A DNA stretch of 62,893 nucleotides, counting the filler, from Diploschistes diacapsis (lineage: Eukaryota): the NCBI GenBank assembly GCA_023645945.1. It is 10 parts of 10 records of this genome, joined end to end, with 100 filler letters (N's around TTAATTAATTAA, not from the genome) between each part and the next. Parts side by side here need not be neighbours in the genome. Positions count along the whole stretch, not along the records: positions 31,534 to 55,199 come from JALAIB010000258.1; 9 more parts are not named here. One strand, given 5' to 3'. Shown piece by piece: positions 25,648 to 55,199 of this stretch (its first letter is position 1; every line of letters begins with the position of its first letter). Both the position numbers and the translations under genes were made by a program. Under the pieces are notes generated by a model. The model did not search any database. It worked only from the letters and a program-made list of their open reading frames with translations, and was not told the origin of the DNA.

Positions 25648-25804
25648 NNNNNNNNNNNNNNNNNNNNNNNNNNNNNNNNNNNNNNNNNNNNTTAATTAAT
25701 TAANNNNNNNNNNNNNNNNNNNNNNNNNNNNNNNNNNNNNNNNNNNNTCTAGCAGAGATCTAGCCACCGAATAGCCACTTATCTGCCTTATTGTCACACT
25801 GTAG

Positions 25805-25891
25805 TAAAAGCACGGACACGGACACCGCAGCTAAAAAATCTAAAATACTAACACTGACACCGCGGTGTCAGTGTCAGTGACGACCAGCCTA
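25805..25891. mobile_element. hAT-like element terminus (...GTGTCAGTGTCAGTGACGACCAGCCTA)
   Basis: Ends in CCAGCCTA, the reverse complement of the TAGGCTGG terminus at 27124; has CACGGACAC/CACTGACAC subterminal repeats. Confidence 0.55.
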
Positions 25892-25941
25892 ATTTGAGGT
25901 GGCCGGAACCTAGGGGTGGCCGGAACCCCCGTAAAACACGT
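25892..25941. mobile_element. Fot1/pogo-type right TIR followed by TA
   Basis: GAGGTGGCCGGAACCTAGGGGTGGCCGGAACCCCCGTAAAACACGT|TA is the reverse-complement homologue of the TIR at 25003. Confidence 0.8.
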
Positions 25942-25943
25942 TA

Positions 25944-26506
25944 TATAAAATATATATTTACCAATCAATAAATAACCGATAACCTTACTAAGGCAATACT
26001 TAATCAAAAATGGCAGGAATTTATATCCGCAATAAGACTAATGCGAGTTCATTAGTCCTATCAGTCCTATCCACTGATTAACCCATTTTAGTTTATGGGG
26101 GTGTGTCAGAATACTAACCTAAATAGGTTAGTCAGATTGCTTACTAAGCTTCTAGCATGTTTAAATATTCTGGAAGGTTCCAGAATATTCTAGAACATAA
26201 TAGAATATCATCGAAGATTATAGAATATTATCGAATATTCGGCTTACTAATGCATGGAATAATTTGGAAGGATAAGGAACATTCTAGAATAATGATCACT
26301 AATTAAACTAGCGTGAAATGTGCCTATAAAAGGCCTCTCATCCTCCATCGTTCTCAGTTATAACCTTCAACCTCTTCAATATATTATTACTGAACAATAG
26401 TCAGCTACCAGGCTAGGCAGGCTAGGGATTATTTCCTAGTTAAGATTAGCTGCTGAATTCATCTTAGTCATCTGTTATCTATTAGGAACTTCCACCACTT
26501 TCAACA
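25944..26506 (+). mobile_element. Ty1/Copia 3' end: RNase H tail, PPT and LTR (26104-26506)
   Basis: TNQ*ITDNLTKAILNQKWQEFISAIRL matches the Copia 'QxADxLTK' RNase H end. A G-rich PPT is followed by an LTR bounded by TGTCAGAA...TTTCAACA. Confidence 0.75.
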
Positions 26507-26811
26507 CTAAGCTTTACACAAAAACCAACCACATAATCAGAATCCTAAATAATATTTTAAGTATTACAATATAGTTAAACCGCATTATATTAAACTTCTT
26601 ATATAAGTGTTATTCCCATTCACTTCTTCAACCTTTTACGTTTATACGAAAATTTTTTGTCCATAACTTTTTGTTTAACGTTATTGATTTTTCGTCCGTA
26701 ATTTTCGATCGAATATCTTATCTATTAAATACCGAATGCCGTTTATTGGAATGAGGTTTAGCCGCTTAAGATTTAAGCCAGATTATAAGGCCTAAAGTGA
26801 AGAATTTTCGG

Positions 26812-26898
26812 GGTAACACTAATGGATATTGAACCCATGACCTTTCGATGAAAATCGAGGTCTTCCAGCAGTCATGTTCATTGTTCGACTATGCTGCC
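26812..26898 (-). pseudogene. Degenerate tRNA-like sequence (possible tRNA-derived SINE head)
   Basis: Minus strand GGCAGCATAGTCGAAC...CTCGATTTTCATCGAAAGGTCATGGGTTCAATATCCAT...TGTTACC shows A-box-like and B-box-like motifs, a T-arm, a TTC anticodon-like loop and an acceptor stem with transition mismatches. Confidence 0.4.
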
Positions 26899-27123
26899 AT
26901 GTTTATCATATAATCATGATTATACAAAAAAATATTTATAAATTTCGCGGGTTCCGTGGATTTTATTAATCCCACCACGTTTCGTTAATAAATTTAACAA
27001 AAGTTAGAAATTCCTAATAAGTCCCTTAAACATTATTTATTGCAGGTTTCGCCGGTTCTGCGCTCTATAGAACTTTTCGCCTGCTTTGGCGGGATTTTTT
27101 TTCGTGATATTAAAAGTTTAAAA

Positions 27124-27576
27124 TAGGCTGGCCGTTTCGTGCCACGGACACTTCCACGGACACTACCGAGAAATTTTTTAAAACACGATACTGCCACGGA
27201 CACTACGGCTAAAAATTTAAAACACGGACACTTCCACGGACACTATACTATAATAAAAGCACGGACACGGACATTACGGCTAAAATTTTTAAAACACGGA
27301 TATTTTTACGGACATTATCGCCAAAATTTTTAAAACACGACACTACCACGGATATTATATTATAATAAATCTATTAAAACATTACCGTGAATCTACCGAA
27401 ACATCGCGATAAAAAAATAAAAACATAAAAAATAGACGTAATAATTCTAAAACTATTACAAAATAAATATTATTTAAAAACATTTCGGTGAATGCACGAA
27501 CACGGCAGTAAATTTATTAACACGAATATTATACTTAAAAATTTTAAAATACGGACCCTTCCACGAACATTATATT
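27124..27576. mobile_element. hAT-like element terminus with dense CACGGACAC subterminal repeats
   Basis: Starts TAGGCTGGCCGT, followed by many CACGGACAC(T) copies that are increasingly RIP-eroded inward. Confidence 0.6.
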
Positions 27577-27676
27577 NNNNNNNNNNNNNNNNNNNNNNNN
27601 NNNNNNNNNNNNNNNNNNNNTTAATTAATTAANNNNNNNNNNNNNNNNNNNNNNNNNNNNNNNNNNNNNNNNNNNN

Positions 27677-29006
27677 ACCGGTATCGGTACGTGAAAATAA
27701 TTATTTATTACGTATAAAAATTTTATATTTAGATTCTCGTCGCTATCCGGATTTTATAATATGCATAAAAGCGTACCGTATTTTTTTAAAACGGCAATTT
27801 AAGTTATCGGGTTTGAAATAAGCTCGAACGCTTTAATAAAGAAAAGAAGATAAACGGATCCTTTAATTATAGAAGAATAAATAAAGATTTTCCGGTTTAA
27901 AATTAAGGATATTTATTTCCGAGAATGGATCGAGAAGGTAACCTTAACGCTAAAATAGCATTTCCTTACTATTAAATCAGCCGAATAGGAGCTATATAAT
28001 CCTATTAGAAAGAGCTTCTTTGGAACACTGACAAGGGAAGGGATAGACTATTAGGAAGTGGGGAGGTTTGCGCCTCCTCCGGACGAGGAGGAGAAAGGGG
28101 ACGAGGAAGAGGAGGAGGAGGAGGGAGAAGAAGAAGAGGAGGAGGAGGAAGAGGAAGAGAGCGGGGATAAATAGATGGTATATTAAAAAGAAAGGATATC
28201 ACAAGACCCTAGGGGCCTATAATTATAATAAGATAGAATCTATTTATTTATATGGCTGTTCGGTTATTTATTGGTTTCGTAATAAGCTTATTTTCCTATT
28301 TGTTTACTTAATGTTTTTTTGTTTACGATTTTTTATGTGATCGACTTTCTTATTTAGTGTTTTCTTATTTATTTATTATTCATATATCGATCTGCTTATT
28401 TACTGTTATCCGCTCGAGAAAGGTAACGAAAGAAGAAATAGAAAAAAAAAAGAAAAGGACGTGTTATTAATTATACCTGTCGGGCGGAGTATTTACGGAT
28501 AATATAAATACGATCGGAGATAAAGATGTTTTTAAATAAATACCGCTTTTCAGTTTAGCTGTATTTAGGAGAGTAAAATATAGAAAGATAGGTTTAAAAG
28601 CACGGCTACGTCGAGGAAGGAATATTAAGGATAATAAATTTTTGAGTATTTTAATTACCGGAGAGGTACAGGACTATATTAGGATATAAAGATAACGGGA
28701 TGAAGATTTTTTGTTAATAAGACTTATATAAAATTCGCTATAGGATAGCGAATTATTAAAAAAGGGGTCGTATATAAATATAAAAGTAGGCCGCAAACTT
28801 AATAGGGGTGGTCCCTATAAAGCAGTTCCATTTAAGGAGGCCTGCTAGGTAGCTCTAAATAAGCAATACATCCTACACTTCACAAATATCCTACCTAGGT
28901 ATGCTGTTGACTACGAAATCACACTACATTCCCCTACTACACCACCTACGACTATCTACCTACTACAGCAAGGGAAGTCTCCCTAGACAGCGCGCCTTGT
29001 GTTTAT
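27677..29006 (+). mobile_element. RIP-mutated dispersed repeat, copy 1, with conserved LINE-like 3' terminus
   Basis: Colinear with 57226-58574, differing mostly by transitions; both end in the identical ACCTACTACAGCAAGGGAAGTCTCCCTAGACAGCGCGCCTTGTGTTTATA. Confidence 0.8.
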
Positions 29007-30035
29007 AATAATAGCGCCGTCGGAATATATAAGTTAAGAATTTTAAGAATTATAAGCATTTTTAAGGCAATTTAGCAAGTAAACGGGATTTTAGAATCTA
29101 AGGTTAAAAAAGAAGCTATAATAATAGAATAAGCGACTTTAATTAGTAGAAAGTTAAAGGCAGAGGTTATTAACTTTAAGGCTACTGATTTGGATGTATT
29201 AAATTATTCGATTATATTTATTAACTTAAATAAGTCGTTTAGGTAATTCATGATCACGACGTTTGAAACGTTAACTTCATCGGAAGTGAGAGGTATTCCC
29301 ATTAGGAGAGAAGATAGTGATAAAGTGGGATAGGAAGAACTAAGAGTGCAAGAGTAGAGCACCTTAGGGTCCTTTAATGACTAAAATGTTTTTAATAAAG
29401 AATCGTTTTCTACTATATAGTCACCGAAGTCTCCTATAATAACTACAGTATTGAAAAACAGAACATTCATTATCTCGAATAAGGAACAGAATTGTAACTA
29501 TAGGCNNNNNNNNNNNNNNNNNNNNNNNNNNNNNNNNNNNNNNNNNNNNTTAATTAATTAANNNNNNNNNNNNNNNNNNNNNNNNNNNNNNNNNNNNNNN
29601 NNNNNGGATGGGGGGCCGGGATGCGACGAGAGGGGGAGAGGCGGAGAGGAGGGACTGTACCGAGCCACACGGTTTGCTGAAGCGCTGTTCGGCCCTCGTC
29701 ATGGCCAGACTCCCATTCGTTTCGGCGGAACGAGGCCCGTCAAAGTCCAGCTTCCTCCTGGCTTCTTTCGCCCACAGCAAGCGGCGTCTTTGTGAGGCCT
29801 GGCGTGCGACCGCCAAAAGGGGCCTCCTCCCCCGGGCCCCCTCTGTCGGACTAGGCGTCACGTTGACGGAATCGGCAAAGTTGAGATCCTGGCCTCGTGT
29901 GCTGAAGCCGCCCATCACGTTGTAGCCCAGCGCCTGGTGTATTCGTCGTTAACGACGGCTTATCCCGCCCCTACCCCAACGCCCCTTCAGGAATGAAGGA
30001 TGTGTATATAACAGTCGGCTGAAACGAGTCTCTCG

Positions 30036-30200
30036 GACCGATACCGATGCGGTGGATGTAGTTCTCCCTGGAATCTGAGAGATCATGGTTGAGGACCAGG
30101 GACACCCGATACCGCGCGCAAGAAGATCGGTAGCGATGAGAGCACGGGAGAGGCGCGAATGGGAGATTCTTCAAGACCATCTCACGCTGGGCTTGGGATA
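30036..30200 (-). pseudogene. eIF4A (DEAD-box helicase motif V-VI) gene fragment
   Basis: [22 protein letters not shown] / [21 protein letters not shown] versus eIF4A [38 protein letters not shown]; DVQQ is deleted with a frameshift. Confidence 0.8.
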
Positions 30201-31533
30201 TGTTTTGATTTCTTTCTCGTGCATATTGGTGCTAGTTTTCGGCTGGGAAGCCGCGCTTCTGTTGGTCGGGCAAGAGCTCTGGCGAAGCCAGGGAAATCAA
30301 TATTTGGGAAGACGGGATGTGCTCGTCGGATCTGGGCGCCTTAACGAAGAGAAGAGGAAATCCACATCCCAGAATGAAACTTCAAACAGCGGGAACTGTC
30401 AATTTAAAGATGAAGACGAGTTACAAAAGTACCCTCCAAAAAAGTCTTCTAAAACGAAGCAGTGCATGATTCACGTCTCGATCCAGCTGAATCTAGACAA
30501 CCATAATCTACGGAGCGAGGGGCTGTCGCCGACTAATCGACGAAGCGCAATGCAACGGGGGCTGGGTGGACGCCGACTAATCGACTAATCGCTAGAAGAA
30601 TTTGTCCGCATGAGAGGGCCGGAAGACAGCGGAAGTAGACGGGGACTGTCCTCAGAAAAATAGCATCTTGGCCTAGAATACGGGGAACCATGCACGATGC
30701 ATGACTTGCAGCATCGATACCATCAACCATCAACCCCCAAAAAAAAACCCTCCTACCCGCACTGATCTCATCTCACAACTCACAAAAGACATCTCGAAAA
30801 CCAAGCAAAAAAAAAAGGTGCGAGCGAGTGACGGCAGATGGACCGTGCGAGGGCATGAGGACAGCAGACATCGAAGATGGCAGGATGGGCAGACAGAGGA
30901 TACGAAAAAGAAGAAAAGGCTCCAGAGAAACTCCGATGAAATGAGCGAGAGGTGGAGGGATTGCTAGCAGTAGTGGGAGTATGAAAGGGGGTGATTCCAC
31001 GCTATCAACGCCATTAGCCATTGACGCTGTACAAAGTCAAACTAGAACGTAACAGCAACAGCATCCGCGACCGATAGCAGGACCACAAAGGCAGGCCATG
31101 CGGCCGTACTCCCCTAAGAATAGGATAGGGCGTGTGAGATGACGAGCAGAGCTTGTGCTTCTGGCTCGGCTCTGCTGGGAAACTGATTGGAAGGCGGAAC
31201 AACGACGCGGCTGGCATGCATAGCACCGGCGTAGCAAGTCTCAACACTTCTAGCAAATACAGTAGGTATAGGTAGTACCGTATGTACCTGGCAATAGATC
31301 GCCATAAGTATCGCTACCACCATCACGTACCTTGCTCTTCCAACCACCCAGATACCGATGGCGAAAATCCGCATGCTCTCGGTGACCCACAATGGAGCCT
31401 TGATAGATCACTTTCTAGCTTATAGTAACACCCNNNNNNNNNNNNNNNNNNNNNNNNNNNNNNNNNNNNNNNNNNNNTTAATTAATTAANNNNNNNNNNN
31501 NNNNNNNNNNNNNNNNNNNNNNNNNNNNNNNNN

Positions 31534-32386
31534 TCTTTAATTCGTTAATAAATCTCTTCTGCTTATTTTTATAACTATAAATCCATCACGTTCTCGATAA
31601 CGTTGTCTTAATTAACTTATTCTTTTATCGGGTCTTTAAACGAAGATATTCGTCGCTTGGGTTCGTCGCGGAAGTACTTCTAGAATCCTTTTTATATTGA
31701 TTCTTCGTTAATATTGAATCCTTCGAAGGTCTCTGGCGTTGATGACTATTATAACGCGGAATATTTTACGGATTATTTCTTAATTAACGATTTATTTATT
31801 GAATCGTATTTTTTAACCGATGGTATTTCGATTAATTCTTTAAAAGGCGGAAATATTATCGATTTTCTTCTTTTTTTTTAATACTTTTTACCAGCGAGGG
31901 CCATTGTTTACAATAAATCGGCGGGTAGTATTTTCGAGTTCCGGTTATCGTGGATTTACTCGAATACTTAATGTTCGATTAACGTTTTAAATTCTCGTCA
32001 CGAGTGCGAAAATAAAGTAAGCTTTTCGAATGTAAAACGCTAGCGTAGGAAAGAATACTTCTCCATCGGGGGCTAAATCTAATCCGGAAGGATTAAGTGT
32101 AGTTTAGGTATCTATAGGTAAAAGATCTCGATTCGAAAAGCTGAAAAAAAAATTATTTAGGTGGGAAGAAGGCACCGTTAAGTAGTGTAGATGCCAGACC
32201 TACCGGGGTTCGGGGATTACCCATCTATACAGCCACCTCCTGACCCTGCCGTGTCTTGGCAAGCACCTGGGCATTAACCCTGCCGTGGCTTGGCAAGCAC
32301 CTGGGCATCAACCCTGCCGTGGCTTAGCAAGCCCCTGGGCACTAACCCTGCCGTGGCTTGGCAGGCCCCTGGGCTGGGCTGTCTCA
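31534..32386 (-). mobile_element. Gypsy LTR (31996-32386) with adjacent RIP-mutated internal sequence; same family as 24751-25000
   Basis: The reverse complement begins TGAGACAG and aligns with the LTR at 24751; four 34-bp units ACCCTGCCGTGGCTTGGCAAGCACCTGGGCA. Confidence 0.8.
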
Positions 32387-36220: not shown

Positions 36221-38331
<2,111 letters not shown>

Positions 38332-39229
38332 GGTGTGTGTGCTGATGGTGGTGATGTTGATGTTGACGTTGACGGTGGTGGTCGTGGACGGTGCAGGGGA
38401 ATGCGTTGGGTCGTTGGATACGTGCGGCATTGGGGTTGGAGGTGGATTGGATCATATTTGGATTTGGAAGTATGGCTGTACATAAGTGAAATAGTCCGGA
38501 AAAGTACTTTAGTGTCCGTTACGCGTGGGCATATATGTATGGCTGGCTGTCGTACACCTACAGTAAGTCGCCCCGCGGAAATGCCCACGAGTTACATGCA
38601 TGTGAGATTTCTTTTGCAACGCACGTGGGGGGGTGCTAAACCCGAAACAATTAAAAACCTCATAACTTGTAAGTCATTCAAGCCGGTAAGAGAGTTTTAT
38701 TCTTTTTTCCGTATCGTAGAGTTGTTAGGAAGTTCTTTCTGGCGGTGACTGGGAGCGCCCCGCCGCTTTGCTCACCCTCCCGCTCACCCTGCGCTGCCTG
38801 CGTTTTCTAGTCGGCCCTCCCCTGTGTTCTTTTTGCCGCATTCATCTGTCAACTTTAGACCATGGGGACCCCGTTCCTGGATCCCTGGCGTTCTGATTGG
38901 GGCTCTCCTCGAGATGTGCTTGTTGGTCACTATGCTGGCCTTCTTTCTTTCCTTTCCCCTGTTTTCGACCGGAGGTTGTGGCGGAACGTTCGTGTCCTTG
39001 TTCCTGGTCTGGCCATAAATGCCTGTTCCTTTGTCCTATTATTGCTATTATTCTTCCTTGCAGTCCTCTCAAATGTCTCTCTTTCCTCCCATCGGTTTGG
39101 GGCCCCTCTTCGATTTCCCCGCCTTCTCTCTGCTTTAGCTGCTCGTCTCTGCTCTTTCCCCGTGGGAACCTCCGCGACTCTTTTATTTCCCCTCTGTCTT
39201 GCCTTCGTTATCTCCGTCCCTGAGAACCG

Positions 39230-41700
39230 TCTCTGCTCTGGCTGGGCCTTGTGAGTTTCTTCGCTCGGGCTCGTGAGAGAGGCTCGAGGCAGGACTGGAG
39301 CGGTATCAACGGCGATCAAGTCCACAAAGAACTCGAAGCTGGAACGGAGAAACGGGACGGCTATGCGCTCCGTCTCCGGCATGGGTAAAGTTTTTTTGCG
39401 TCCTGTGACCTTCTCGGGCTCTTTCTTCTTTCCCCTTTGCCGCCAATGACTCTGCACCCCTCGTTCGTAGTTGTTGCACAGAATATGGGTAAAGATGTTG
39501 CCAACGATGTCTACGATCTGGAGACGTTGAAAGACTTCGTGCATCAAGTTGGCCACCGCATGAACGGCGTCGAGGGCGTCGAGGGCGAGGATGATACGCC
39601 CTCTTTCGAGAGCGTCAAACAGGCGAGGAAAGATTTCACGGCCGAGTTTCGACGACACAATGATCCCACCCCTGGCAACACCACCCTTTCGGTCTCGAAT
39701 GTACGCAGATCCTTGTTATGGACCCTCTTGATTCTTCATCTACCCCTCCCCGAAACATGCTGATCAGGCTGTAGTTCATAAGAGATATTCCAAAGAAAAA
39801 GCTGAATCTCCCGCTCTACAAGCGAAAGCAACGCTACGGCACCAACAACCACCTATTCTGTCTGGGTAGGCAGCCACAGGAAAACGACCGGTATTTCATA
39901 CCTAAGGCCCGGTTATCAGAGCGGCTACATGGTCAGAGATGCCGGACTACGTCTTCACCCCGTCAAGGGTAGGCGAAATACATGAGTCCAGCGCTCGGGC
40001 AGGCTCCGGTCGAGGCCTTTGTCATCGCTTGATTCAGCAGTTGCGACTCCAGGTCGTGGATTGAACTGACGTATCGTCCCGGGGTTCTCAGGATGTTATC
40101 TTCGCAGTTTTTCGGATTGAGCATGGGAAGGCCGACTTCGCTGCTCAACTTGCATGGGATGCAAAAGCCACAAGCTGGACGCCCGACAAAGGGTAAAAAC
40201 CATCTCGCCTCAAGCTTACAATCGATTCTGGCTGTTATAATAGACCCGAGCAGGCTATTCATGAGGGCTTGGAACCGCGACCTTTCTTCCTTAGCCCTAT
40301 CTTCCAAGCTGGCCATGTGCCTAACTCGAGGCGCCTTCCGAGACTACAGCATGATGGAACAGCTCCTTGTGATTACCCCGCTAACTGAAATGCAAATGTA
40401 CCATCTCGGGTGGGAACCGCGGGTGCTGGACACACCCTTCTATGACGGTAAGGAGCGGGATATGGAGAAAGCAAACTCGTTCTCCAACCGACTTAATGCT
40501 CTGTGTTGCCATGCCCACTACCTCGGCCTCCAACAACCCATGACTTCAGAGCCGAGGGCCTTCATATCGTTTGTAAACCCTCCTTTATCGCCTGGCATTT
40601 CTTTTTTTCTCTTTGATTTTCTGCTCCCGCTCTAACAGATCACATAAATAAACTTTATTCCAAGTCGCTGAGAATTGAACATGGGGGCCACCTCAATTCT
40701 ATTACCCATCGTAATCATAATCATTATCAGCCCAACAATCCTGGGATCGACGGTCAGGATGCTGGCCTCGCTGGACAGCTCCGCACCCCTTCTGGCCCAT
40801 CTATTTCGTGGTATGACTGTGGCACACAATCCCAACCTCTTGCAGGAGTTGCCCGCAGAGAAGAAATACGAAATTGAGCCGGGTCCGGAGTTTGTTGCAT
40901 TGAGTGGACAAATGTGGGATTTGAAAGCTGAGCCTCCATCGGAAGAGCGGGAAAAGCGGCCCCGCAAGCTGTAATCTGAGAAGTACAAAGCTAATGAATC
41001 CCAAGCTTCGCGAAGCCCTAGAAAACCAAGAGTGCAGGCAGCCCGCAACGGCCGCGGCAGAAATCCAATATATTTGGAGGTCACCTCGCACGCTCTGGCC
41101 GCTTTTGTCGCCCTGAGCAACAGCGCCTGTTAAAGGACATGTTGTGGTTTGTTGGCTGCGAAGCCCCTAAGATCGGAACGTTCAGCAGGGCATAAACGCT
41201 CTGTATCAACAGAAGACTGAAATTGCCTTTCGTCCAGGTCTAAAGCCGAAAAATTGTCATTGCTTTCGGAGCAAGACGCGGGGGTCAACCAGATAAGTAT
41301 GTCATTCCCGATATCCATCCTCTGCACCAATATTTTTTATTTGCAAAGCATAAAAGACAAAGCTGACTCACTGGGTACGTTCCTACCGTTTCAGGCGCTC
41401 GCCCACGCAGAGACGGAAGCATATCTATACGTGCCATAAAAGGAACCTTTCCAAAAAAGGTGACTTTCTAGAGTTGACACATCTCGAGACCATTGATCTC
41501 GGAACATTGAGCATAGGATCTAGAATCTGGAGCATGAGTGACACATACTCGCCAATATAGCAGTCCCCAACATCGTTCTTCAACTCGTCAAGTTCAATGG
41601 GATCCCAAAACAAGCACAATTGAACCCTAATAGGCACCATTAGGAACGAAAGGGATCAAATTCGGGGTCGCATCTTCAACAAAGGAGGTCAACGAGCCGA
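39230..41700 (+). pseudogene. DUF3435-type tyrosine recombinase (Starship 'captain'), decayed
   Basis: Fragments across frames and introns: YDLETLKDFV, KQARKDFTAEFRR, YVFTPSRVGEIHESSARAGSGRGL (catalytic R, ~39966), DVIFAVFRIEHGKADFAAQL.WDAK, RGAFRDY, PPTTHDFRAEGL (HxxR, 40539-40550), HGGH...HYQPNNPGIDGQ (H and Y), LFRGMTVAHNPNLLQELPAEK, LYQQKTEIAFRPGLKPKNCHC, WKHIYTCHK. Confidence 0.85.
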
Positions 41701-42101
41701 AATGGGGACGTCGAGTGTGGAGTCAAAACAGGAGCCAGTCACCATAAGGACACCCATGATAGACGACAAGGCGGAGCCCGAGGGAAGGGGGCCAGAAAGG
41801 TTGGAAGCAAGGCTCGTAGCGCTGCACCCGTTCAGATTCCTGGCATAACACAGTTAATGCTCAGCTTGCGGTTGGGTTGAATAGCACAAGACTCTATGAA
41901 TTCTTCAAATGGTGAGGTTCATGTTCTAGTTGCGGCCTGGCCGATTGCGACGTTCCCGAATTCTTGCAGAAGACCTCGTATTGCGCAGTTTAGGAATTTT
42001 CTTTGACATATCTACGTTCGGCGCAAGGCGGTCATTGCGTCCAGAACGCACTGGATCGGAAGACTGGGGAGTGATGCAAATAGCATCCACTTCCAAGATA
42101 G

Positions 42102-43700
42102 TCAGAGATCGGGTGGCGTGGGCCTGTCGACGAGTACGTAAGGCTCACTGACAACCCCAACCGAACCACCAGCGCTGCTATAGCCATTCTCGTACTCAAG
42201 ACATCCATCTTCCTCTGGGGTTAGTTTTTCATTGCTTTGAGCTTGTGAAAGCTCGTAGTGGTTCAACAACTCCTTCTTGAGCGAGTAGGGATTTTTTCGA
42301 GTCCATTCTTCGAGGTTTCGTAACTGTTGACGGCCGGTCTTAAAGCTTCTGGAATTCAAATGCATATTTGTGTCAGTAGCGAGCGTCTGGTGATTAGTTA
42401 CTTTCCCTGAAGCATCCTTTATCGCATAGCGTGCGGACGTGATTATGTGTGCCATCTGAGATGAAGCTACAGATGCGCGCTGTACCAGGTGGATCTGCTC
42501 TACCCATTGATTCAAGAGCCCTATTCCGACCATAGACGAGGCTCGTTGCATCGTAAGCTGCCTGCTCTTGTGCTTGGATCAAGTCCCCGCCTGGTTCTTG
42601 AATTCTCCAGCCATATGTGCAAGGGTAATTGCATGCTTGCCTGCAGTCGGAACAGCAGACCCACCAAGTTTTCCCCTAGCTGGATATGGCTTGAAGTCCT
42701 GGAGGTTGATGCCTCGAATTAAATCAGGCTCTGGTGCAGATAGGCCGTCATTAATCCGACGTTATCAGGATACTCGGTGAATTGCTGATTATAGGCAGAA
42801 CGATAGCTCCCATCGTTATACTTCTTCAGTAACCCAATGACGGGTTGCTTCACAGTGTCTTCGTTCTCCGCTGTTGCTGTGTCGAATAGATACTGCCTAG
42901 ACTCGTCGAGGTCGGGCGAGGCAGATTCGCGTGGTCGATTGAGATATTCACAAATTTCGTCAAAGTTGCTGGGTTGTGTGGATTCCATTGGCACCAGGAT
43001 GCCATTGGTTACTGCAATTTCTGGAAACCTAGGGTCACTAGCCGAGACAGTTTTTGCGCTCGTGGAGGTATCCTCGGTCCGTCCCGATTGGGTCCCAGTC
43101 TTCCGAGATCTCGGCATGTTCACGAACTCCCACTGTCGAAGTACCGACTTCTCAACAGATGGTAGATGTTGCGAGTGGGTTTGACGGTGGAGATGCTTTA
43201 AGTGTTTCGAGGTAAGCGTAAGGGCATCCGTGTCGACCGCTCGCGAGGATTGAGCTTGATCCCGGATAGCTTTTGTCGTTTGGCCTGCGGCTCAACGACG
43301 CCGTCTTGATCCCAGTGCCTTTTGCGTGTCGGAAGAGGATTTTCGTTGACGGGAGAACGGCTTCTCGGGGTAGGGTTGTTTTGACCTAGAGTACAGTGTA
43401 TGGATTAGCACGGTGCAACGACGATGAAGGAACGGCTTCGCCAATAGAAAAGCTCCGTAAACATCCACAACAGAGGATTAACTGACCTTTTGGGGTCTTT
43501 AGAATCTTCCGTTTAGCCTGAGGTCGCTTTTCGTTGGACGCAGCAATGTGTTTGGTTGTTCCGGGTGGCGATCTCGTTCGTTTTCCTTCGTGCTCAATTC
43601 TCTGTTGGTTCAAGTCATGAATCCTCTGCAATCGTAAGCTCTTGCGAAAAGGTTGACGTTGAAATTTATTCTCGAAGTTGCGGCGTTGTTTGCTGGCCAT
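42102..43700 (-). pseudogene. PD-(D/E)xK nuclease-like (DUF7924-related) protein, frameshifted
   Basis: SAYNQQFTEYPDNVG/NDGLSAPEPDLIRG...LAHMAGEFK/GDLIQAQEQAAYDATSLVYGRNRAL...FISDGT/...FKTGRQQLRNLEEW, with at least three frame breaks; basic N-terminus containing RKSLRLQ. Confidence 0.7.
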
Positions 43701-44378
43701 AGATCATAAGCCAAGGACCATGGTAAGGAATATATAAGTATTAACGATTCTTCTGTAGTCTTGGACTCTTGTGTGTGTGCTCGGTTGGTTTCTCGTTTTC
43801 AGCGGCTCGATCTCGTTTATCTACATGCAGTTAATAACGATGACCCTGTAAGGATGAAGAGTGCTCGCACGACTTTGCTGATCTGATTCGACCTGCTTGT
43901 CGGATTTGGTGTTCTGGCCTTTACGTGCTCTGTCTGTGTCTTCCTTCGTGTCACGAGCTTTCATATTGATTGGAATGATTGGTGGAGGGATGGGGGATTT
44001 GGCATCTTTCTATAGTTCGGGCGGTAAAGACGATAATTCCTTTAGAATGATACAAAAGACGTGGGTCCTTGCTTGCTGAGAGCTTAGCACGAAATATCAA
44101 GAGCCAAAATCATTGGCTGCTGGAAGTCCATAATGATCCTCAGCCTCGCACTCTCTCTCAAAGCTTCCAAAATTCCAAAAAGAGGTGAAGGCAAGGTGTA
44201 TAGTGAAGAACTCGATGAGGCAATTTGTGTTCGATTTTTGTTGACCGCATCGCTCGGGTTTTCGGCCTTGCGCCAAGCGCGACGTCAGCAACCAGGATGG
44301 ATAAACTCTCAGCATGTCTCTGAATTTCTTCCTTTTCCATTCCCTTCCATTTCCTTGTTACACATATCTCGTCCCGCT

Positions 44379-45943
44379 ATGGCCATCGACGGCATGGAGT
44401 TCAGCCTGTCGGACGAGGCGCACGTGATGCAATTCGACGCCTTCAATCAGAATGCCGAGAACCCCAAGGACGTCCGCAGGTCCAAGCACCACCGGGGATG
44501 GCGCAAGATCGTGCGGAATTTTACGCCAGCGTAAGCACTCTCTTTCCCCTAGCGGCCCTTCCCTCCTTGCGTCTTCCTCATCTCACCTCCTCCCCTCTCC
44601 TCGCCCCTCCTTTCTAACCCCACTCTCCCTGCCAACAGCTGGTTCTCCGTCAATATGGGCACGGGCGTCGTCTCGCTGCTCCTCTACAGCCTCCCCTACC
44701 CGGCCCCCTGGCTCTATTACCTCTCCATTGCCGTCTTCTGCCTCAACATCCTCCTCTTCGCCATCTTCCTCCTCCTCTCCCTCCTCCGCTACACCCTCTA
44801 CCCATCCCTCTGGCTCGCCATGGTCCGCCACCCGGCCCAGTCCCTGTTCCTGGGCACCTTCTCCATGGGCTTCGCGACGATCCTAAACATGCTGGTGCTC
44901 GTGTGCGTGCCGCTGTGGGGCCCGTGGGCGCTGACCCTCGCCTGGGCGCTCTGGTGGGCCGACGCGCTCGTTGCCCTCGCCGTTTGCGCCACCATGCCCT
45001 TCATCATCATGCAGGTCCACCGCCCCGAGCTGCGCAGCATGTCCGCCGCCTGGCTTCTGCCCATCGTGACCACCGTCGTCGCCGCCGCCAGCGGCGCCCT
45101 GGTCGCCGGGGCGCTGGGGGTTGACAAGCCGCAGCACGCGCTGTGGACGCTGGCCGTCTCGTACGTGCTGTGGGGCACGGGCGTTAGTCTCGCGATGAGC
45201 GTGCTGGTTATCTATTTCCACCGCCTGGTGCTCTACAGGATCCCGCCGCGCGAGGTCATCGTGTCAGTCTTCCTGCCGCTCGGCCCGCTCGGGCAGGGCG
45301 GGTACGGAGCCATGTTACTGGGAAAGGTGGCGCGGGCGGTGTTCCCATTGACGGGGACGCTGAGCGCGGGCGAGACGCGCGCGGGGGATGTGCTGTATGT
45401 GGTGGGGTGGGTGGTGGCGATGGTGATGTGGGGTTATGGGCTGCTGTGGCTGTTTTTTGCGGTCGCGAGCATTAGTCGCAGCAGGTTCCCGTTCAATATG
45501 GGCTGGTGGGGGTTCACGTTTCCGCTGGGAGTCTATGGGCTGTGCACGATCCAGCTGGGGAGGGAGATGCCGAGTATGTTTTTCGACGTCCTGGGCACGG
45601 TATGTTGTCTTCCTTGTATTTGTCCAGTCGACCGTGGTGCTACAGCATCGGCTTTCTTATGTTTTAAGAACCTTCCCTACGTTCGAGCGATCTCCTACGG
45701 TTGTCACACATTGTCCATCATTATTAAAGAAAACATATCGTCAAGCCACTAACATCCCCGCAGATCATCGCAGTCTCCGTCATCCTCCTCTGGATCATGG
45801 TCGCTTCCATCACCATCAAAAAGGCCGTGTCGGGCGAGATCTTCGTCGCCCCCTGCCTGTCCAGCATAGACCGGGACCACGACCACGACCAGGGCCAGGA
45901 GCAGAGCCAGGCCGGGGAAAAGGATGAAAGGGCACAGGTGTGA
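44379..45943 (+). CDS. SSU1: Sulfite efflux pump Ssu1 / TDT (SLAC1) family transporter (exons 44379-44530, 44639-45599, 45764-45943)
   Basis: GWRKIVRNFTPAWFSVNMGTGVVS, HPAQSLFLGTFSMGFATI, AAWLLPIV, REVIVSVFLPLGPLGQGG, FPFNMGWWGFTFPLGVY, GEIFVAPCL. Two canonical introns keep the frame; about ten hydrophobic helices. Confidence 0.88.
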
Positions 45944-47128
45944 AAAAGGATGAATCTGACTGCTACCAAACGACGGTGGCGCGTCCAAGAACTTGACAGG
46001 CCAAAAGCTTTGACCCGTGAGAAGCCCGTTTGGGTCTCCTGGGGATGTTCGCTACGTTGTCCTTTTCTCGTCTCATTCTTCACGACGAGAACCTCCGCCA
46101 AGGGCTGAAGCTAGGGCTGGAACGGAGAAGAGATCGCCAACGGCAAAACGGTGCGGCAAAGGCAGCAACAAAGACGTGGTGCAGAAGGACTAGAAAGGCC
46201 TGAAAGGCGGATGGGGATAGAAGACAATGCCACCAGCGCCGGTGACTATTCAGAATCGAACCGTCTGGCCATCCGGCTTTTTAGCTCTTTTTTCGATTAA
46301 CGGTCACCGAATCAAGCCCGGTCCTCAATCCGCTCATCCACGTCGATATCAGTGAGATAATGGGCCCTGTACACGCCAGCCTGGAGTACACCAGGGAGAA
46401 AAGCAGGAGCGAAGGCCTCGACTTCTTACTAGTAAGCAGATGGGTGAGAGTGGCCACAAGACGCGGAGAGAAACAGGAGGGACGAGGGGCTGGGCTGGGC
46501 TGCACTGGACTGGGTCTACTATCCATTAGATGTTTCTAGCATGTAATGTCGGTGATAGTCGCTGTCAGCGCAAGAAAGAAGCCGGCCCTGTCCTCTCCTA
46601 GATTCTGGAGACTGGAGAAAGTGGTTGGCTTTGTTTTCGGTGAGTGCTCATCGAGGGGGATTGGTTAGGAGGAAGGGCCGAGAAGGAAGTGTGAGTAAAG
46701 GAGGAGGAGCGAGGGTGAGGTGGAGGAGGGAAAAGAAAAGAGGAGGAGAAAGAGGAGGAGAGAGAGGAATGTCGTGTTCCCAAGAGACACGGGGCGCTAT
46801 TTAGGATATCTAGATTCGGAGTGTCTAACAATGGGATTCTTCTGGGGTGTACGTTCAGTCCCATCGCTCTGTTGTATATAGAGATAGCCCTGCGACCTCC
46901 AACCAGCTGTGTCTACCCTGCGTTCTACTCCCGAAGCGTGGGCGTTTACCTTGGATTATTGTACAGGATATAGTGAGAAAGGCAGATACGTACGAGCTAC
47001 TCGAGTAGTTGGAGGTGTGGTTTCGCTATATATATCAGTTTGGTTCAATACTGGCACAAAGCAGTTGGTCTTTCGGCTATGTGGCCTTAGCGGTACTAAA
47101 CTGGCGCTTGCAATATCACAGAGGTAAA

Positions 47129-47249
47129 GTACCCCCCAGGATAAAAGTCAGCGCTGGTTTAGTGCGCTCAGGGGCCTTTCACCGTTGTATCAGGACATGT
47201 TGAGCCTTTTTTTCATTCTAGTCAGCGCTAACCCTTATTCTGGGGATAC
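47129..47249. mobile_element. MITE-like inverted-repeat element, copy 2
   Basis: GTACCCCCCAGGATAAAAGTCAGCGCTGG ... CTAGTCAGCGCTAACCCTTATTCTGGGGATAC; same terminal motif as 5912-6005 with a different interior. Confidence 0.7.
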
Positions 47250-47407
47250 TTCGTAGGACAAACGAGTGAGCCGCCGGGCAGGCGGGGATTGGCTCTAAGT
47301 CTAAACTCGTCATCCCCTGCCTTCGCCAACATCCAGCGTTAAATTGATAACTAGCCGCTCAAGATTCATTCTGCAATCCTCCATTCCAAACCATCATAGC
47401 TTCGGTG

Positions 47408-47415
47408 TATAAAAA
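47408..47415 (+). promoter_or_regulatory. Candidate TATA box
   Basis: TATAAAAA 40 nt upstream of the proposed ATG at 47448. Confidence 0.35.
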
Positions 47416-47447
47416 CTCAGTACATCCTCCTCCGTCCGCTAAACAGT

Positions 47448-49644
47448 ATGGAAGCTGGCGCTACGAAGCAAAACACGGGCAGAGCGCAAACCTGCCGGTC
47501 GAAACCAGACAAACAGGTCAAACCAGATCCTCCAGATCCACCAGATCGTCAGACTTCCTCACCCTTCTGACATCCGGCATGGCTAACTGTATACAGGTAA
47601 ACGGCGCCGTGACGCCAGAGACGAAGTTGCATCCGAACGCATATCCAAGAGGCAGAAAATAGAAGGGAATTATCAGATTACACAGTCCCGACCTTGTCGC
47701 AGAAGCACCAGATTGCAGGAGAGACGGGGTTCAAATCAACGAACCGCGCGGGAAATAACATTACCAGGGTCGCTTCAGAACACTGAATCGCGCCGTAACG
47801 GCAGGCAAGAACAGCGGATCGGTCGTAAAGCGTCTAGGGCTTCAAGATGTCAGTCAAACTGCGCTGCCACATTCATTTCCAATGCTAATCAACACAGCCA
47901 AACAACGCAGCGTCCTCGGAAGCAATAACAACAAGCAACACTCATCCTCTTCATCGAGCGTAAAGGCTCCAAGGAGTGGCCCGCCCCCCTCACCATTCTC
48001 AGTTGGGGATAAAGCTATTAATTTGAGAGCAGTCGAACGGCTACGAGCTATTAAGAAGGCATGTGGTTTTTTCTCAACATGAAGTCACGAAGCTAACCCA
48101 AACACCAGTCTCCCCGAAGCCTGTCAACTCCGCGGGAAGGCAAAGGACGAAACCGAAAACGATTGGAAGACCTTCAAGGTGTCCCGGCCGAGCCAGCCCC
48201 AAAGCAAGCGCAGAAGTCCCTCAAAGACTCTGCTGCGGAACCCACACAAGGTGATAAGGGATCCCACACACCCAGTGGAAGCAAGATCGATCCGATTGGA
48301 TACTGGACGGAAGAAGGAACTTGGCCCAAGGAATACTTTGAGCAAGACGATCAGACCAGGGAATATCTCAACAGAGATCTCGACGAAGAGAGCTGGCTTA
48401 GGAAATACTGGGTACCAAACATGGAACATGCCCTGGCAAGACCGAAGTCTTACTCTTCCCTTGGTGGAAAACAATCGCAATCCGGCACTACCGCACCAAG
48501 CGCCACCACACCCAGCGATCAGAAGGCACGGGAGGAAAAGAGTAGTGCATACACTGAACTACGTTATGAAATTCTACTCCAGACCAAGGGCAGCTTTATG
48601 AGTGAGTCCAAGCTAGGGATCACGAATAAAAGCCAAGAGGAATATCAGGCCTTGCTCGACGCGGACCAGCCGGTTCCAACAGACTCGCTGTTTCGTGACG
48701 ACCTGTTCAAATCGACCTGTCAAATGATAGAAAGCAGAAACGAGGCGAGAGTCGTTCGTGATATATCCTTGCTAATCGTCCCGTCTGCAGAAGCCCTGGC
48801 CATACGGGGTGCCAAACAACTCGAGATTCTGGTCGAAAGCGTCAACGAAGGCTGGAATAGCTCCATACGTTTGACTAAGCCTCGCCCGCAGCCCGACTAT
48901 TCCGTGGGATTCAGACGGGACGCCTTTACCGACGAACAACTGACTATACTTGAGCCTTTTGTTGGCAACATAGCGGATACTTCCACGTCCCTCTTCATGG
49001 CCACCTGGTACATGTATTTCCCATTCCTCACTTGTGAAGTCAAGTGCGGCGCCGCGGCGCTGGCTATCGCAGATCGCCAGAATGCCCATAGCATGACTCT
49101 TGCGGTAAGAGGCATTGTGGAGTTCTTCAAGCTCGTGAAGCGCGAAAAGGAGCTTCACAGGGAAATCCTCGCCTTCTCAATTTCGCACGATCAAACGGCG
49201 GTGAGAATCTACGGTCATTACCCCGTGATCGACGGGAATAAGACTACCTTCTACCGCCACACTATTCACAGATTTGACTTTACAGGTTTGGCTGGCAAGG
49301 AGAAGTGGACGACATACAAATTCGTCAAGAGCGTATACGATATATGGATGCCCGCCCACTTCAAGAGAATCTGCTCGGTTATCGACGAGCTGCCATCCGG
49401 TGTCAACTTTGACCTTTCGAAGAAATCCGAGCCGCTATTTCCCGAGCCTTCCGGTCTCTTGCAGCAGCTAGAAGGTCATCATCTTTCCCAACAGTCAACC
49501 GCCGAGTCGGCATCTCTGCCGGAGAAACATGACAGTCAGCCAAGCCTTGGTGGTTCACAGGACGTGACCTCGAACACAACCCCATCTCAAGGAACACAGC
49601 GAGAGACATTTCAAGTACCGAAAAAGCGGCGTACAGCAGGGTAG
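47448..49644 (+). CDS. Intact PD-(D/E)xK nuclease-like (DUF7924-type) protein with basic disordered N-terminus; three short introns, the third GC-AG (48059-48108)
   Basis: ORF 48163-49644 has IDPIGYW, RNEARVVRDISLLIVPSAE, ESVNEGWN, PRPQPDYSVGFRR, YFPFLTCEVKCG, ADRQNAHSM, ILAFSISHD, VRIYGHYP. It extends in frame to ATG 47448 through GTCAGA, GTCAGT and GCATGT donors, each with a GCTAAY branch point; ends in an NLS-like PKKRR. Confidence 0.85.
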
Positions 49645-52134
49645 TGGTGCATCGTTAAGGCGCGGTGTGCGCGATATCAGGGGACAGCAAATGCTGTTAT
49701 TATGAAGGAGAAGGACGAAAAATGCAGTGCACTAGCTGGACTTGAGACAGCCGTGGAAAAGCTTCACTCAGCTCAAATTGCATGAATACGCACATGCATT
49801 ACCCTCATGGCAATCTTCGGAGGTCCATCTGGATTGTCTGGGTCCCGAGTCAAGTAAACCACAAGATCCTTCTTCATCATCATGATGCTCTCGCATGCGA
49901 CTGTCAAGTACTTTCCCGCCATTTCAAGCAGCGCCCGGACTTGCGACGAGCGCTCGACTCCTAAATAGCACCTTTCGAGCACCCCGTACTGCTCAACAAT
50001 GCAAGTCCACCGCTTGACTAAATTTGATCACGGGAGAAGTCTGCGCGGATGCAACACTTCAGATCATTGCCATGGAAAAGCGGCTTGGGCTTGCGCGTCC
50101 CTTTGATCAAGCCTTTCCCCTGTTCCGATATTTCTGTCACCTACTGAGCCGGGCTAGAGGTTTGACCTGGCATCAATCATATGGAAAAAGGTACGCATCG
50201 AACTTCCCAAGTATATTTCTCAAGTACTAGCCTCTCAGAATGCTTCTCGAAGCTGGTGTAGAAGCGGCTGGGCGTTTTGAAGATAATCCTCGACTGGGTC
50301 TCGAGGAACGTTTCCCATCTTCGTCTCGAATCCTCCCACTGTGAGAATCTATGTAAAATCGAACAAATTATTTAAAAGTTTCTCGCCGGGGCAGAGTAAA
50401 CCTTAGGAAGTGTGGGCTCATCAAGAAGCTGTTTCGGAAAGGAATCCACAGATTGACCCAGTAACCTCTTCTTTGCCAGTGAGAGCGGAACAAAGTTACT
50501 CTGTGAACCATGCAAGATGCAAACTTTCGGCCTCTCTCCACAGCATCAACCGTGATTTTGCCATTCGGTGCATACCCGCCCTGAAGAGCCACCGCTCGCC
50601 TTTCATCTGGATTTAAGTCGGGAGAGACGGTTGAAAAGCATGATGACTCAAGAAGGGATTGAAGACATAGAGACGACTGAACCAAAGGCTGGGGAGTTGT
50701 AGCTGCCTTTATAACGACAGACAGCATCTTTGCCGCTGCATGTTGGCCATAACAGCGACCGAGACGTTCTGAGATGTCCTGAGGTCGACAACATCCTTCG
50801 GGGCGGCGAGGTGGAACTGCGCGCACACTAACCACAATTTTGAGCTGCGTGAGGTGTTCTTACCTAGGATATACTGGGTACCATGCAGGTGTTGCTGGTC
50901 AGGGTAGGTAGGTAGACTGCGACGGTGTGGAAATTTGCTTTTTTTTTGTAAGCAGTGCTGCATATTCTAGATCTCCAAGGAACGTTACATGGATAATAGC
51001 CCCTTGATCAAAATTCCTGTATTTTCAATCCTCATTCCTTGGGGGGGTGCCAGTTGTAAGGCTTATTGTTCCTCTTGCGCTGTCCTATGGCTGACGATGG
51101 TTCTGGTGCGCATACATCACTTCTACTTCGTGACCCATGTTTAGACAATTAATATTAACGAAACTAGTTAATCGTTAATACTTTGTAGACTCCTCAGAGT
51201 GGTATTAATCCACTCATTTAAATTATATCCATCTGCGCATCCTCCCGTGTCGTAGATGACGGTGGTGGAACACAGTTGCAGACACAAATTTGGAGGCTGA
51301 GGCTCCAAATGCAAGGTCGACACGTTTTTCTGTTAGCCAGCGATCATCCTATTATACCCACGGCATCATCAGAAAGCTTCTCAATTCCGGCTTAGAAACC
51401 GACATGCATCAAGCATTGCAGGACATGCCGATTGTTGTCGTCGCTGTTGCTTCTGAACCCGACATGGAAGCTGAATGCATTTCTGGCAATTGAATGCGCA
51501 GAATTCATGGGAATCGCTGGTGCCGGCGCTACGAACAAGCCTCCCAAAGCCTAGTATTGTATGGCCAAACCAACGCCTCGATCTGACTCGCCCAGTTTCC
51601 CCCTATCGGTCCCTACTTGCATATCAGGCCAGTTGGAAATACCCCTTGCGGGTCGTTATCCGGAATTGCTCGAACCAGAGAAGGCTCGTATCTTGATGAT
51701 TGATTGTCTAAACACCGCCTCCGCTTCAGCCAACTTCAGCCTCGTCCAGCACCGAATAAGCTGTGCTGGCCCGTGTCTGTCTTACTTTGGAACCTTCTCC
51801 TCCTTCCCGGAGTGACGACCGACAGCAAACCTGTGTAACTTTATGTGCCTTGTGCTGCAACCTAATAAGTTTGAAGTCATCCTTCACCATTTGGAACTTA
51901 CAATCTCAATCCACTACTAATGAATCGTTCATGCTTACTTCCCTAGCTTCTGTTTCTCTCAGAAGGTTGTGAAGTTGGACCTGTTATTCAACTCCCTCTG
52001 TGCGGTAATCTCGCCTTTTTCTTTACCTCAGCCTTTCGCTTGGCCCTATGAGGCTTACCAAACCGCCATGCTCTGATCAGTTGCTTTCGAGTCGTCTCCC
52101 TCCAAGTTTTGTATCCTTTCTGTAGCTTGCAGAC

Positions 52135-55100
52135 ATGGACGGCGGGCAAAGAGATGAACACTGGCTGAAGATCAGGCGTATGGCCAGCCTGAGTGCGCGT
52201 GGTGGGAAGAGCGCACAGGCGCACACCTTCGAAACTCCGCCGTCACCGCTGTTGCTTCCTCTCAAGGACGATACTTCGCCATATCTTGGCAGTCCCGACA
52301 CCGAAAGGCTTTGGGCGTCGTCGCCAGGAACACAACAACCAAACCGGTATGAGCAGCGACAGACGTTCAGTTTCTCTGGCATATCGACGCCACTTCTGTT
52401 CGCCCTATCCATTTACTCGACCCTTCTCTCCTGCGTCTGGTTCCTGATAGCAGTCATCAAGCCCCATTACAACATGTTCATCAGCGAGATTGGAGGCACC
52501 ATCAGTCCGAGTACTGCGTCGACAATCGTGGCCGGAACGGCAAAGACCATCGAATTGTCTTTCATCACAGTTGCCATTACCTGCCTGGGCCAATTCTTCA
52601 CTAAGCAAGCTTTCAATGGAGCGTCTCCCGGTATCTCTCTGGCGGATATCCAACTCAAGACAATGATTGTACAGCCCGGGTCTTTGTTGACCCAGTGGCG
52701 AAGCTACGCTCAGATCTGGAGATCCGTGATCGGACTTCTCGCTCTCCTGGCTTGTCTAACAGCGGTGCTGTATACCACCGCTAGTGACGCCCTGGGTATG
52801 TGCTGCGGCATTGAGCCCCTTTGCAACAGAACCAACCTAAGCAACTTTTGCTGACAACGCACAGTAACACCCGTCCCGAGTCTCCATCCTGCAGTCACCA
52901 TGTCCCTCGTATCTTCAGTTCGCACTTCCATAGCAAACCTCTACTATTTGGAAGGAAACTGCAAAACACCGTTTTTCCAAAACGATCCCCTCTATGCTGG
53001 TGGCGCTTGCCTTGCGGTGGAAGGTGCGGGTTCTGCGTAAGTTAAACACTTCTTTACCTTGCTATTACCAGACTAACGGCGTGCCTGCAGCTATCACACG
53101 TTCATGGCGTATTTGACAAGTTGGAATCAGTCAACTGCATCAGGAGCCAGCGTTCCGCTAGCAAAGCGGCCGCTTCCGATAGCACAAATAAACGACAATG
53201 TTACAGTTCAAGGGAGTTGGGTAGAACCTATCAGCGTATTCTCTCGGGACTCCAGGGTAGTGAGCAATGTCTCCATGGTCTTACCTCACGCTGGCCTTAT
53301 TGCTGCCTCGGCCCTTGCAAACAATGGCCTCCTCCAGGTTAACGCTGCTAACGTAAGTCGCCCTTACTTTATTCCTACAAGCCTTTGCTTACGAGCGGCT
53401 ACAGACTGCTGCCGAACTGGACGTCGATGCTCAAACCGTACTGCCTGTAATGAACGTGCTATGTGCCACCAGCAACGCGAGCGACTTGCTTCCTCTTTCC
53501 TACAAGAACTTTACTAACGCAAGCCCGAACATTACTACAAACAATTGGCCGTTCGGCTTCGATTCGGCCGGCTGGCGCAACGAAACGGTCTTCGACGGGA
53601 TCTTTAACTTCAGTAGCTCACGCCCTCCCCCACTCTTTTATAAACTTCCCATGGTGTACAACACCATACTCAATGACTCTGGAGCCTACCCGGACGCACT
53701 GTACATTCTCTCGAATTCCAACATCTCCTCCCCTCAGCCCTACACTTTGTGCTCCTTGTCCATGACCGTCCGTTCCGGCTGCTCGACCAAATACCGCTCT
53801 CGAGTCTCAGGATCGCTCCTCAGCTCTGACTGTAGCCCTGGCAACCCCATGGCCTACATTCCCACCCCCGCAAACAATGGCTCAACCTGGATGCGCAACC
53901 GCGATTGGGTCTCCGTTGCCTCAGACTGGGCATTAGCCACCTCCCTGCATGGTGGCATTTCCGACACGAATGCCTCGACTTCGCGTGTTGTAACGGAATT
54001 TGCCTCGAACAACGACACGCTGAGCCCCTACCGTGCCACTCTTCCCGAGGTCCTTGCCATCCTCGCTTCCAACACCCTCCTCACCTCCACAACAGACGCC
54101 GCCTTTGACGGTGAGTGGCCCTTCTCCAAGGAGATCGCGCCAACCAACGTCCTGGCAAACCCCACTCTGGAATCCTTCACCGCCAACGTTCAAATATCAG
54201 ACTACGCATCGGGTGGCTCGGCACCGTGGCAGAACGTCTTCGTTCTCATCCTCATTCCCTTGTTCCTGCTCAACTGCCTCTGTCTTGCGTACCTGGTCTA
54301 CATCACCCTGCCCCAGCGCTGGCTTCCGAAAGGGCACTACGTCCATCTTCATCGACGCAGCGTACGGGGTGAGGAGGACACGTATAGCACACAGCCGCTA
54401 CAGCACTATCACCCGTATCTTCACGCCGGCGTACAGCGCGACTTTACAGACTTACAGAATCTCTTCACCCTAGCCCTTGGCACTGCCGAGCCGAGAGAGG
54501 GCAGCCTCATGAAGGGAACGGGCGGGGGGACATGGCCCAAACCCCACAATGAAGGAAACCCCAACCCCGGCGCAAGGACATGGTTCCTAAACCGCAGCAC
54601 CCTCCATCCAGGCATCCAGGCCGAGCGAGAGGAACGCTACAGACTGCTAGCCACGAAATGGCACATCAAAGAAAAACCCCCGGCGCGCCCCTTGCAAGAC
54701 GACAGTGCAGGCCTGGGACTAGGAATGGGACTGGACAGCAGCGTCGAGGGAACGCCCAACCTCGACGGCGGCCTCTCGAGGAACATGTACGGCCACACCG
54801 GCTACTTCGGCGCCGGCAGCTACCACAGCAGTCCGGGCACAGGCGCAGCGCCGGGCACGAAAGGATACCATATCGTCATCGACGGCGAGGAGGGCGGGCA
54901 GCAGCACCATTTCCGACGGAGAGGATCTTCAAACGCACACATGATCACGAACGCGCGGGCAAAGATATACGGGGAGGCAGGAAAAGAAAGAGTGCGCGGC
55001 CGGTTCGAGAAGTATCTCAGTCCACGAAGCCAGAGCTTTCCGCTGCCGAGTACAGGAAAGGAGCACTCGCCGAGCACCTCGGTCGAGGGCGGTAACGCGG

Positions 55101-55199
55101 ACGTGGCCCGGGAACGGCACATCTCCGGCCCCATAACCGTGCAGAACTCCGTCGGCATCGAGCCGACCCATGCGCCTGCCCACGTCCACACCGCCGACC
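52135..55199 (+). CDS. Uncharacterised fungal membrane glycoprotein, 3'-truncated by the contig end
   Basis: Four exons (approx. 52135-52795, 52865-53036, 53091-53352, 53405-55199) with canonical splice sites. N-terminal TM helices (LSIYSTLLSCVWFLIAV, AKTIELSFITV, LYTTASDAL), many NxS/T sites and a late TM helix (WQNVFVLILIPLFLLNCLCLAYL). Confidence 0.8.

Follow-up and report, generated by a model that had tools for sequence, protein, structure and literature searches.

Does an Ssu1-type transporter gene of the lichen-forming fungus Diploschistes diacapsis owe its place in the genome to a Starship, one of the giant transposons that are excised and inserted by a tyrosine recombinase of the DUF3435 type, the captain? 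We addressed this question in a stretch of 62,893 nucleotides (hereafter the window), made of ten parts of the assembly GCA_023645945.1 joined end to end, in which positions 31,534 to 55,199 come from the contig JALAIB010000258.1. An earlier note on this DNA had placed an immobilised Starship between positions 38591 and 50991, in which an SSU1 gene survived while the mobility gene decayed. Our results support this proposal in part: the locus holds the relic of a captain-type recombinase gene, reading towards an intact transporter gene of odd phylogenetic position, and the transporter could be the former cargo of a dead Starship-like element at this locus, a reading to which we give a probability of roughly 45%. 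We infer that these pieces once formed a single mobile element, as we do the place where that element ended and the export of sulfite by the transporter. The secure result is that a captain relic absent from the annotation, recoverable solely by an exhaustive, frame-tolerant search, lies beside an unusually divergent SSU1 homologue.

A captain-type recombinase relic

The decayed DUF3435 tyrosine-recombinase gene (39224..41485, plus strand) was delimited by phmmer, by tblastn and by reading of the DNA. Conventional routes did not reveal it, since no DUF3435 match was obtained by Pfam on the 142 open reading frames (ORFs) of the window of at least 55 amino acids at E≤0.01, nor on 14 ORFs even at E≤10; a word-indexed search for longer homologous proteins returned none, ESM Atlas gave only uninformative scores for the captain ORF (≤0.83), and the annotated proteins of this contig that we saw included no captain. 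An exhaustive phmmer comparison of ORF 40033-40632 with 1.84 billion representative proteins, by contrast, produced 35 matches at E≤1e-3, one of which (P0001) is the window's own ORF. DUF3435 was present at E≤0.01 on 17 of these 35 relatives, six of them above the Pfam cut-off, so that the family named by the earlier note is upheld through the relatives of the ORF, although the ORF itself has no direct Pfam match.

Translated comparison with the nearest full-length relative that we saw, a Fusarium oxysporum protein of 1034 amino acids with DUF3435 and Chromo domains (P0277), aligned its residues 62-585 colinearly on 39509-41485, with the frame changing along the way. Two further related proteins gave tblastn matches in the same region, one (P0017) with residues 30-436 on 39497-40989 (E 3.7e-23) and the other (P0021) with a match extending to 41097 (E 5e-24). 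Moreover, a metagenome scan with a captain alignment (A1) found 36 loci with related recombinases, and at 16 of them the N-terminal parts are resembled by ORF 39224-39385. The P0277 alignment and the match of this ORF therefore give the relic an extent of about 39.22-41.49 kb, in agreement with the extent proposed earlier. The C-terminal chromodomain of P0277, which follows its DUF3435 region, had no match in the window.

The gene is heavily damaged. By our reading of the DNA against the tblastn alignments, it carries at least six frameshifts (near 39868, 40308, 40521 and 40787, and at about 41100 and 41170), together with two premature in-frame TAA stops (near 39897 and 40972); it has no start codon, and a probable splice donor at about 41293 reads AT, not GT. 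Some other changes of frame are introns, with intron-like inserts at places where introns also occur in relatives (51 nt, GT..AG, in 40185-40235; others after 39700 and after 40570). The catalytic residues R / HxxR / H / Y are still legible, in SRVGE (39957-39977), HDFR (in 40536-40559), GGH (40677-40697) and NHYQPNN (40719-40757), and align with the corresponding residues of P0017 and P0021. Together with the tblastn colinearity, these residues bear out the earlier description of a tyrosine recombinase stitched from short ORFs with its R...HxxR...H...Y signature kept. Because the gene is broken and these residues are spread over several frames, it does not encode an active enzyme. Homology and catalytic residues thus place the gene among the DUF3435 tyrosine recombinases, and no intact ORF was found for it; judged by its sequence, the recombinase gene is real, of captain type and long dead.

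Repeat-induced point mutation (RIP) was considered as the cause of this decay and rejected: the composite RIP index is negative throughout 38-55 kb, which points to ordinary mutation. Separately, window ORFs on both strands at 40.6-41.3 kb matched a 1,196-bp metagenome contig (L035) at 38-52% identity, and, to judge from those matches, this contig may contain a recombinase gene that is rather closely related to the relic and possibly decayed as well.

An intact and divergent SSU1 gene

The Ssu1-type gene (SLAC1/TDT family) lies on the plus strand at 44379..45943, with exons at 44379-44530, 44639-45599 and 45764-45943. Its spliced product of 430 amino acids contains no stop and is identical at 430 of 430 residues to a protein (P0276) from a metagenome-assembled genome (MAG) labelled Diploschistes diacapsis. 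The Pfam SLAC1 profile scored 319.8 bits on ORF 44553-45749 and 335.7 bits on the 430-aa product, where it was covered from position 1 to 331 of 331, and homologues align to the end of exon 1 (RGWRKIVRNFTPA/WFSVNMGTG) as well as to exon 3. This full-length match and the uninterrupted product confirm the intact Ssu1-type transporter claimed before. The G+C content at third codon positions (GC3) was 0.89, the highest among the genes measured (carboxylesterase exon, 0.85; others, 0.52-0.76), in contrast to 47-51% GC in the non-coding and decayed DNA around it, and by its sequence the gene looks intact and selected. Its closest relatives carry the source name 'Sulfite efflux pump SSU1', Ssu1 being the sulfite efflux pump of Saccharomyces cerevisiae, a member of the TDT/SLAC1 family; on these family names, the window's putative SSU1 would export sulfite. 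The SLAC1/TDT family also includes malate transporters (Mae1), and malate transport of the Mae1 type is an alternative function.

To place the transporter we need its host. The fungal character of the window is apparent from recognisable CDC14, Pcc1, cytochrome P450 and carboxylesterase genes, and its source is a lichen-forming Lecanoromycete. Among the best 120 matches of CDC14 (9875-11786, minus strand), 17 of the 18 with an organism name come from lichen-forming fungi that we take to be Lecanoromycetes; the best named relatives are Lambiella insularis (68%) and Xylographa vitiligo (66%), and nine ENA proteins reach 86, 87, 81, 82, 81, 75, 76, 75 and 73% identity. In an exact look-up, which groups proteins at 90% identity, the SSU1, DUF7924, P450, minus-strand and 52-kb proteins of the window clustered with consecutive MAG entries labelled Diploschistes diacapsis (LQ340_002657, 59, 60, 61 and 62); apart from the window's own entries, from Logan and the NCBI MAG, the clusters of these neighbouring proteins had no members. 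Of three sequencing runs that contain part of 36001-46000, the likely source run, a lichen metagenome, has a share of 1.00, 'organism A' of 0.36 and a rock metagenome of 0.22, values that speak neither for nor against the cargo reading.

SSU1 behaved differently from CDC14. Among its best 120 matches, the best non-self homologue was from Oculimacula yallundae at 68% identity and none exceeded this value, against the CDC14 relatives at 73-87%. The same 120 included no second SSU1-like protein labelled Diploschistes, and SSU1 may therefore be the only copy of the species. Of the 59 named matches that we labelled by class, 20 belong to Leotiomycetes and only two (Lobaria and Stereocaulon) to Lecanoromycetes. 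Taken as a whole, the named SSU1 matches are mostly Leotiomycetes and Chaetothyriales, those of CDC14 nearly all Lecanoromycetes. Such Ssu1-type genes may have a patchy distribution among lichen-forming fungi.

Phylogenetic analysis gave SSU1 a terminal branch of 1.09 against a median of 0.23 in a tree of 83 rows, and of 1.51 against 0.24 in a tree of 60 rows, that is, four to six times the median. An approximately unbiased (AU) test rejected a clade of the window SSU1 with Lobaria and Stereocaulon, the two named Lecanoromycete homologues of the search (log-likelihood difference 24.6, p 0.009). When metagenomes were scanned with P0058, whose long branch neighbours that of the window SSU1, no locus was confirmed. 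The long branch, the AU test and the lack of a close orthologue indirectly favour the view that SSU1 belongs to the accessory genes of its lineage; this evidence does not connect SSU1 to the recombinase.

Former cargo or resident neighbour

What could connect the two genes is their arrangement. The 3' part of a carboxylesterase gene (37213..38331, plus strand; Pfam COesterase, 29.8 bits on ORF 37213-37563 and 19.6 bits, below cut-off, on ORF 37567-38328), which we took as the left flank and as a host gene, ends 0.9 kb before the start of the relic, and the relic reads rightwards. In a Starship, the captain occupies the 5'-most gene position and is transcribed inwards; the orientation of the relic and the 0.9-kb gap would fit such a place. 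SSU1 follows on the same strand, 2.9 kb downstream of the last detectable homology of the relic, with no ORF of detectable family between the two. A gene of no known family (52135..55199, plus strand), partial in the MAG annotation and running into a masked N stretch, is a possible right flank. Among the readings considered, it seems likeliest to us that the relic marks where a Starship-like element once had its 5' end; the DNA to its right, with the Ssu1-type transporter, a DUF7924 gene and, on the minus strand, a decayed gene, would then once have been element-borne. The recombinase and one neighbour would have decayed through frameshifts and stops, without RIP, and selection would have kept the transporter intact as a now fixed, immobile gene.

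The earlier note had proposed a nuclease-fold gene on each side of SSU1. On the right, this corresponds to an apparently intact DUF7924 gene (47448..49644, plus strand), composed of a 5' exon at 47448-47516 from the MAG annotation and ORF 48097-49641, with a Pfam score of 364.6 bits. On the left lie minus-strand ORFs (42105..43964), annotated in the MAG at 42722-43964 as a hypothetical protein of 274 amino acids, for which neither Pfam nor ESM Atlas (scores ≤0.75, uninformative) gave a family. We suspect that the minus-strand gene is truncated or decayed, because its frame seems to continue in another frame past the stop at 42722. BLASTP found no relation between DUF7924 and the minus-strand ORFs, a PDB sequence search with DUF7924 gave no match, and the DUF7924 domain, modelled by AlphaFold2 from its single sequence, reached a mean predicted local distance difference test score of 38.5. 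In the available part of a study of the Neurospora crassa pangenome, DUF7924 is among the most overdispersed gene families as measured by the Fano factor (PMC13412767). A 127-aa ORF (P0002) on another ENA contig of 10,423 bp resembles the captain piece 40315-40512 over its first 66 residues (58% identity) and the DUF7924 piece 49216-49362 over residues 66-114 (51%). Captain and DUF7924 gene types therefore adjoin elsewhere too, in the same order, and in that other genome the two types may have been joined by a deletion or fused by the gene call.

Several results weigh against former cargo. Terminal inverted or direct repeats amounted to chance-level 14-30-mers, no target-site duplication or element boundary was found, Rfam and tRNA scans detected no 5S rRNA or tRNA target, and Pfam searches of the ORFs in 38.3-55.2 kb revealed none of the usual Starship accessory genes, namely DUF3723, patatin (PLP), ferric reductase (FRE) and NOD-like receptor (NLR) genes. 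Of the immobilised Starship proposed before, we recovered a dead captain and an intact SSU1 downstream on the same strand, and found no boundaries or accessory genes. Likewise, in the flanks of the 36 related recombinase loci, 14 of which include at least 5 kb downstream, there was no DUF7924, SSU1 or other ORF of 41.5-55.2 kb, with one marginal exception (ORF 49568-49702 in L020, E 1.6e-4), and captain genes commonly occur as orphans, with no element that can be delimited around them. On the phylogenetic side, the group submitted to the AU test was chosen after the first tree had been seen, the lack of SSU1 orthologues in relatives rests on proteins of incomplete metagenome assemblies, and SSU1 groups with two other long branches at 94% in the Shimodaira-Hasegawa-like approximate likelihood-ratio test, a grouping that the program flagged as possibly false. 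The SSU1 tree, proposed earlier as a check, supplied the long branch and the rejected Lecanoromycete clade; it points to no donor, and the position of SSU1 in it may be distorted by long-branch effects.

These points leave room for a serious, if somewhat doubtful, alternative, in which SSU1 is a resident gene, vertically inherited and fast-evolving, the relic is an orphan that came to lie beside it by chance, left over from an element that was largely deleted or from a small insertion of its own, and DUF7924 is an unconnected selfish or volatile gene. The missing boundaries and accessory genes speak for such a history, and none of the 36 related recombinase loci is linked to SSU1 or DUF7924; SSU1 has ordinary fungal introns, a GC3 similar to that of the neighbouring carboxylesterase exon, and perhaps the status of sole copy, and its long branch could by itself account for the AU result. 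Against a resident gene, CDC14 has nine close ENA relatives where SSU1 has none above 68%, and the orientation and closeness of the captain suit cargo. Against it speak also the decayed or volatile genes on either side of SSU1, together with the copy-number variability of DUF7924 described in the accessible text on Neurospora (PMC13412767). We regard as quite improbable a third history, in which the 33-55 kb gene island is an accessory region built otherwise, by segmental transfer or repeat rearrangement, with the relic as one piece of debris among several. The island is bracketed by two AT-rich, RIP-like repeat blocks, which are related and share a repeat in direct orientation (27745-28743 and 57227-58310, 77-81% identity), and the short-read contigs of 22.6-23.7 kb stop at these blocks; yet the P450 and carboxylesterase genes inside the island look ordinary, and nothing indicates that any genome lacks the island.

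Should SSU1 indeed be Starship cargo, the locus would show, in a concrete and testable way, a giant transposon bringing an adaptive transporter into a lichen-forming fungus. SSU1 would then also be a candidate for a gene that determines how lichens, which are known for their SO2 sensitivity, tolerate sulfite/SO2. In a further-reaching scenario, which appears unlikely to us, the mycobiont gained its only Ssu1-type putative sulfite exporter horizontally on a Starship and selection kept it after the death of the transposon; giant transposons would then be tied to the ability of lichens to tolerate SO2/sulfite or sulfur-rich substrates.

The left AT-rich block is a RIP-like transposon remnant (24783..32374) with inverted ends of 184 nt (24819-25002 and 32183-32366, 86% complementary) made of 34-bp tandem units; the related block on the right runs from about 55.3 kb to about 62.9 kb. 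A GC-normal island at 30079-30585 inside the left remnant contains an ORF without a family. Paired masked N runs (44 N, 12 bases, 44 N), about 1,925-1,930 bp apart, occur in 23718-31533 and 55200-61071 and are confined to the two AT-rich blocks; their surroundings showed no tandem repeat of 1.9 kb. A long way upstream of the candidate interval, and outside it, the window also contains an NLR-like gene with a SesA N-terminal domain, tetratricopeptide repeats and ankyrin repeats (880-3653, minus strand) and, separately, ankyrin-repeat ORF fragments (18538-19929, minus strand).

Comparison with known Starships and Ssu1

The window SSU1 shares a full-length SLAC1/TDT domain with Ssu1 of S. cerevisiae, and is set apart by its very long branch and by an identity of at most 68% to any homologue among its best 120 matches. 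Literature searches on Starships with SSU1 or sulfite, and on lichens with SSU1 or sulfite efflux, found no SSU1-bearing Starship in a lichen fungus. As for the recombinase relic, the full-length protein seen to be nearest to it, P0277 from Fusarium, ends in a chromodomain at its C terminus.

A 2026 article, whose main text makes no mention of SSU1, described Starships of lichen-forming fungi (PMC13486527), and its available sections allow a comparison with Tangerine of Xanthoria parietina, in which the captain is set back 1,390 bp from the 5' end. Consistently with Starships in general and with Tangerine as described there, the DUF3435-type recombinase of the window would be the first 5' gene and reads inward, and, as for Tangerine, the host is a Lecanoromycete and RIP-affected repeats lie nearby (PMC13486527). 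Unlike in Tangerine, as far as those sections describe it, the recombinase here is a pseudogene, no ends with direct repeats or terminal inverted repeats were found, no empty site is known, and DUF3723, PLP and NLR genes were not found in the interval. The same sections report two degraded Starships that kept one selected gene, namely ToxA in the degraded Horizon of Parastagonospora nodorum and a methyltransferase 'fossil' in Xanthoria calcicola (PMC13486527). In the accounts given there, intact copies of the element tie the gene to the element in both cases, whereas neither an intact copy nor a homologous element is known for our locus, and decay at our locus proceeded through indels and stops, not RIP. 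Like these two cases, the locus combines a decayed mobility gene or element with one intact, probably useful gene. Because lichen Starships and degraded Starships reduced to one gene are already on record in the part of the article available (PMC13486527), the locus of D. diacapsis would add at most one more case to this series.

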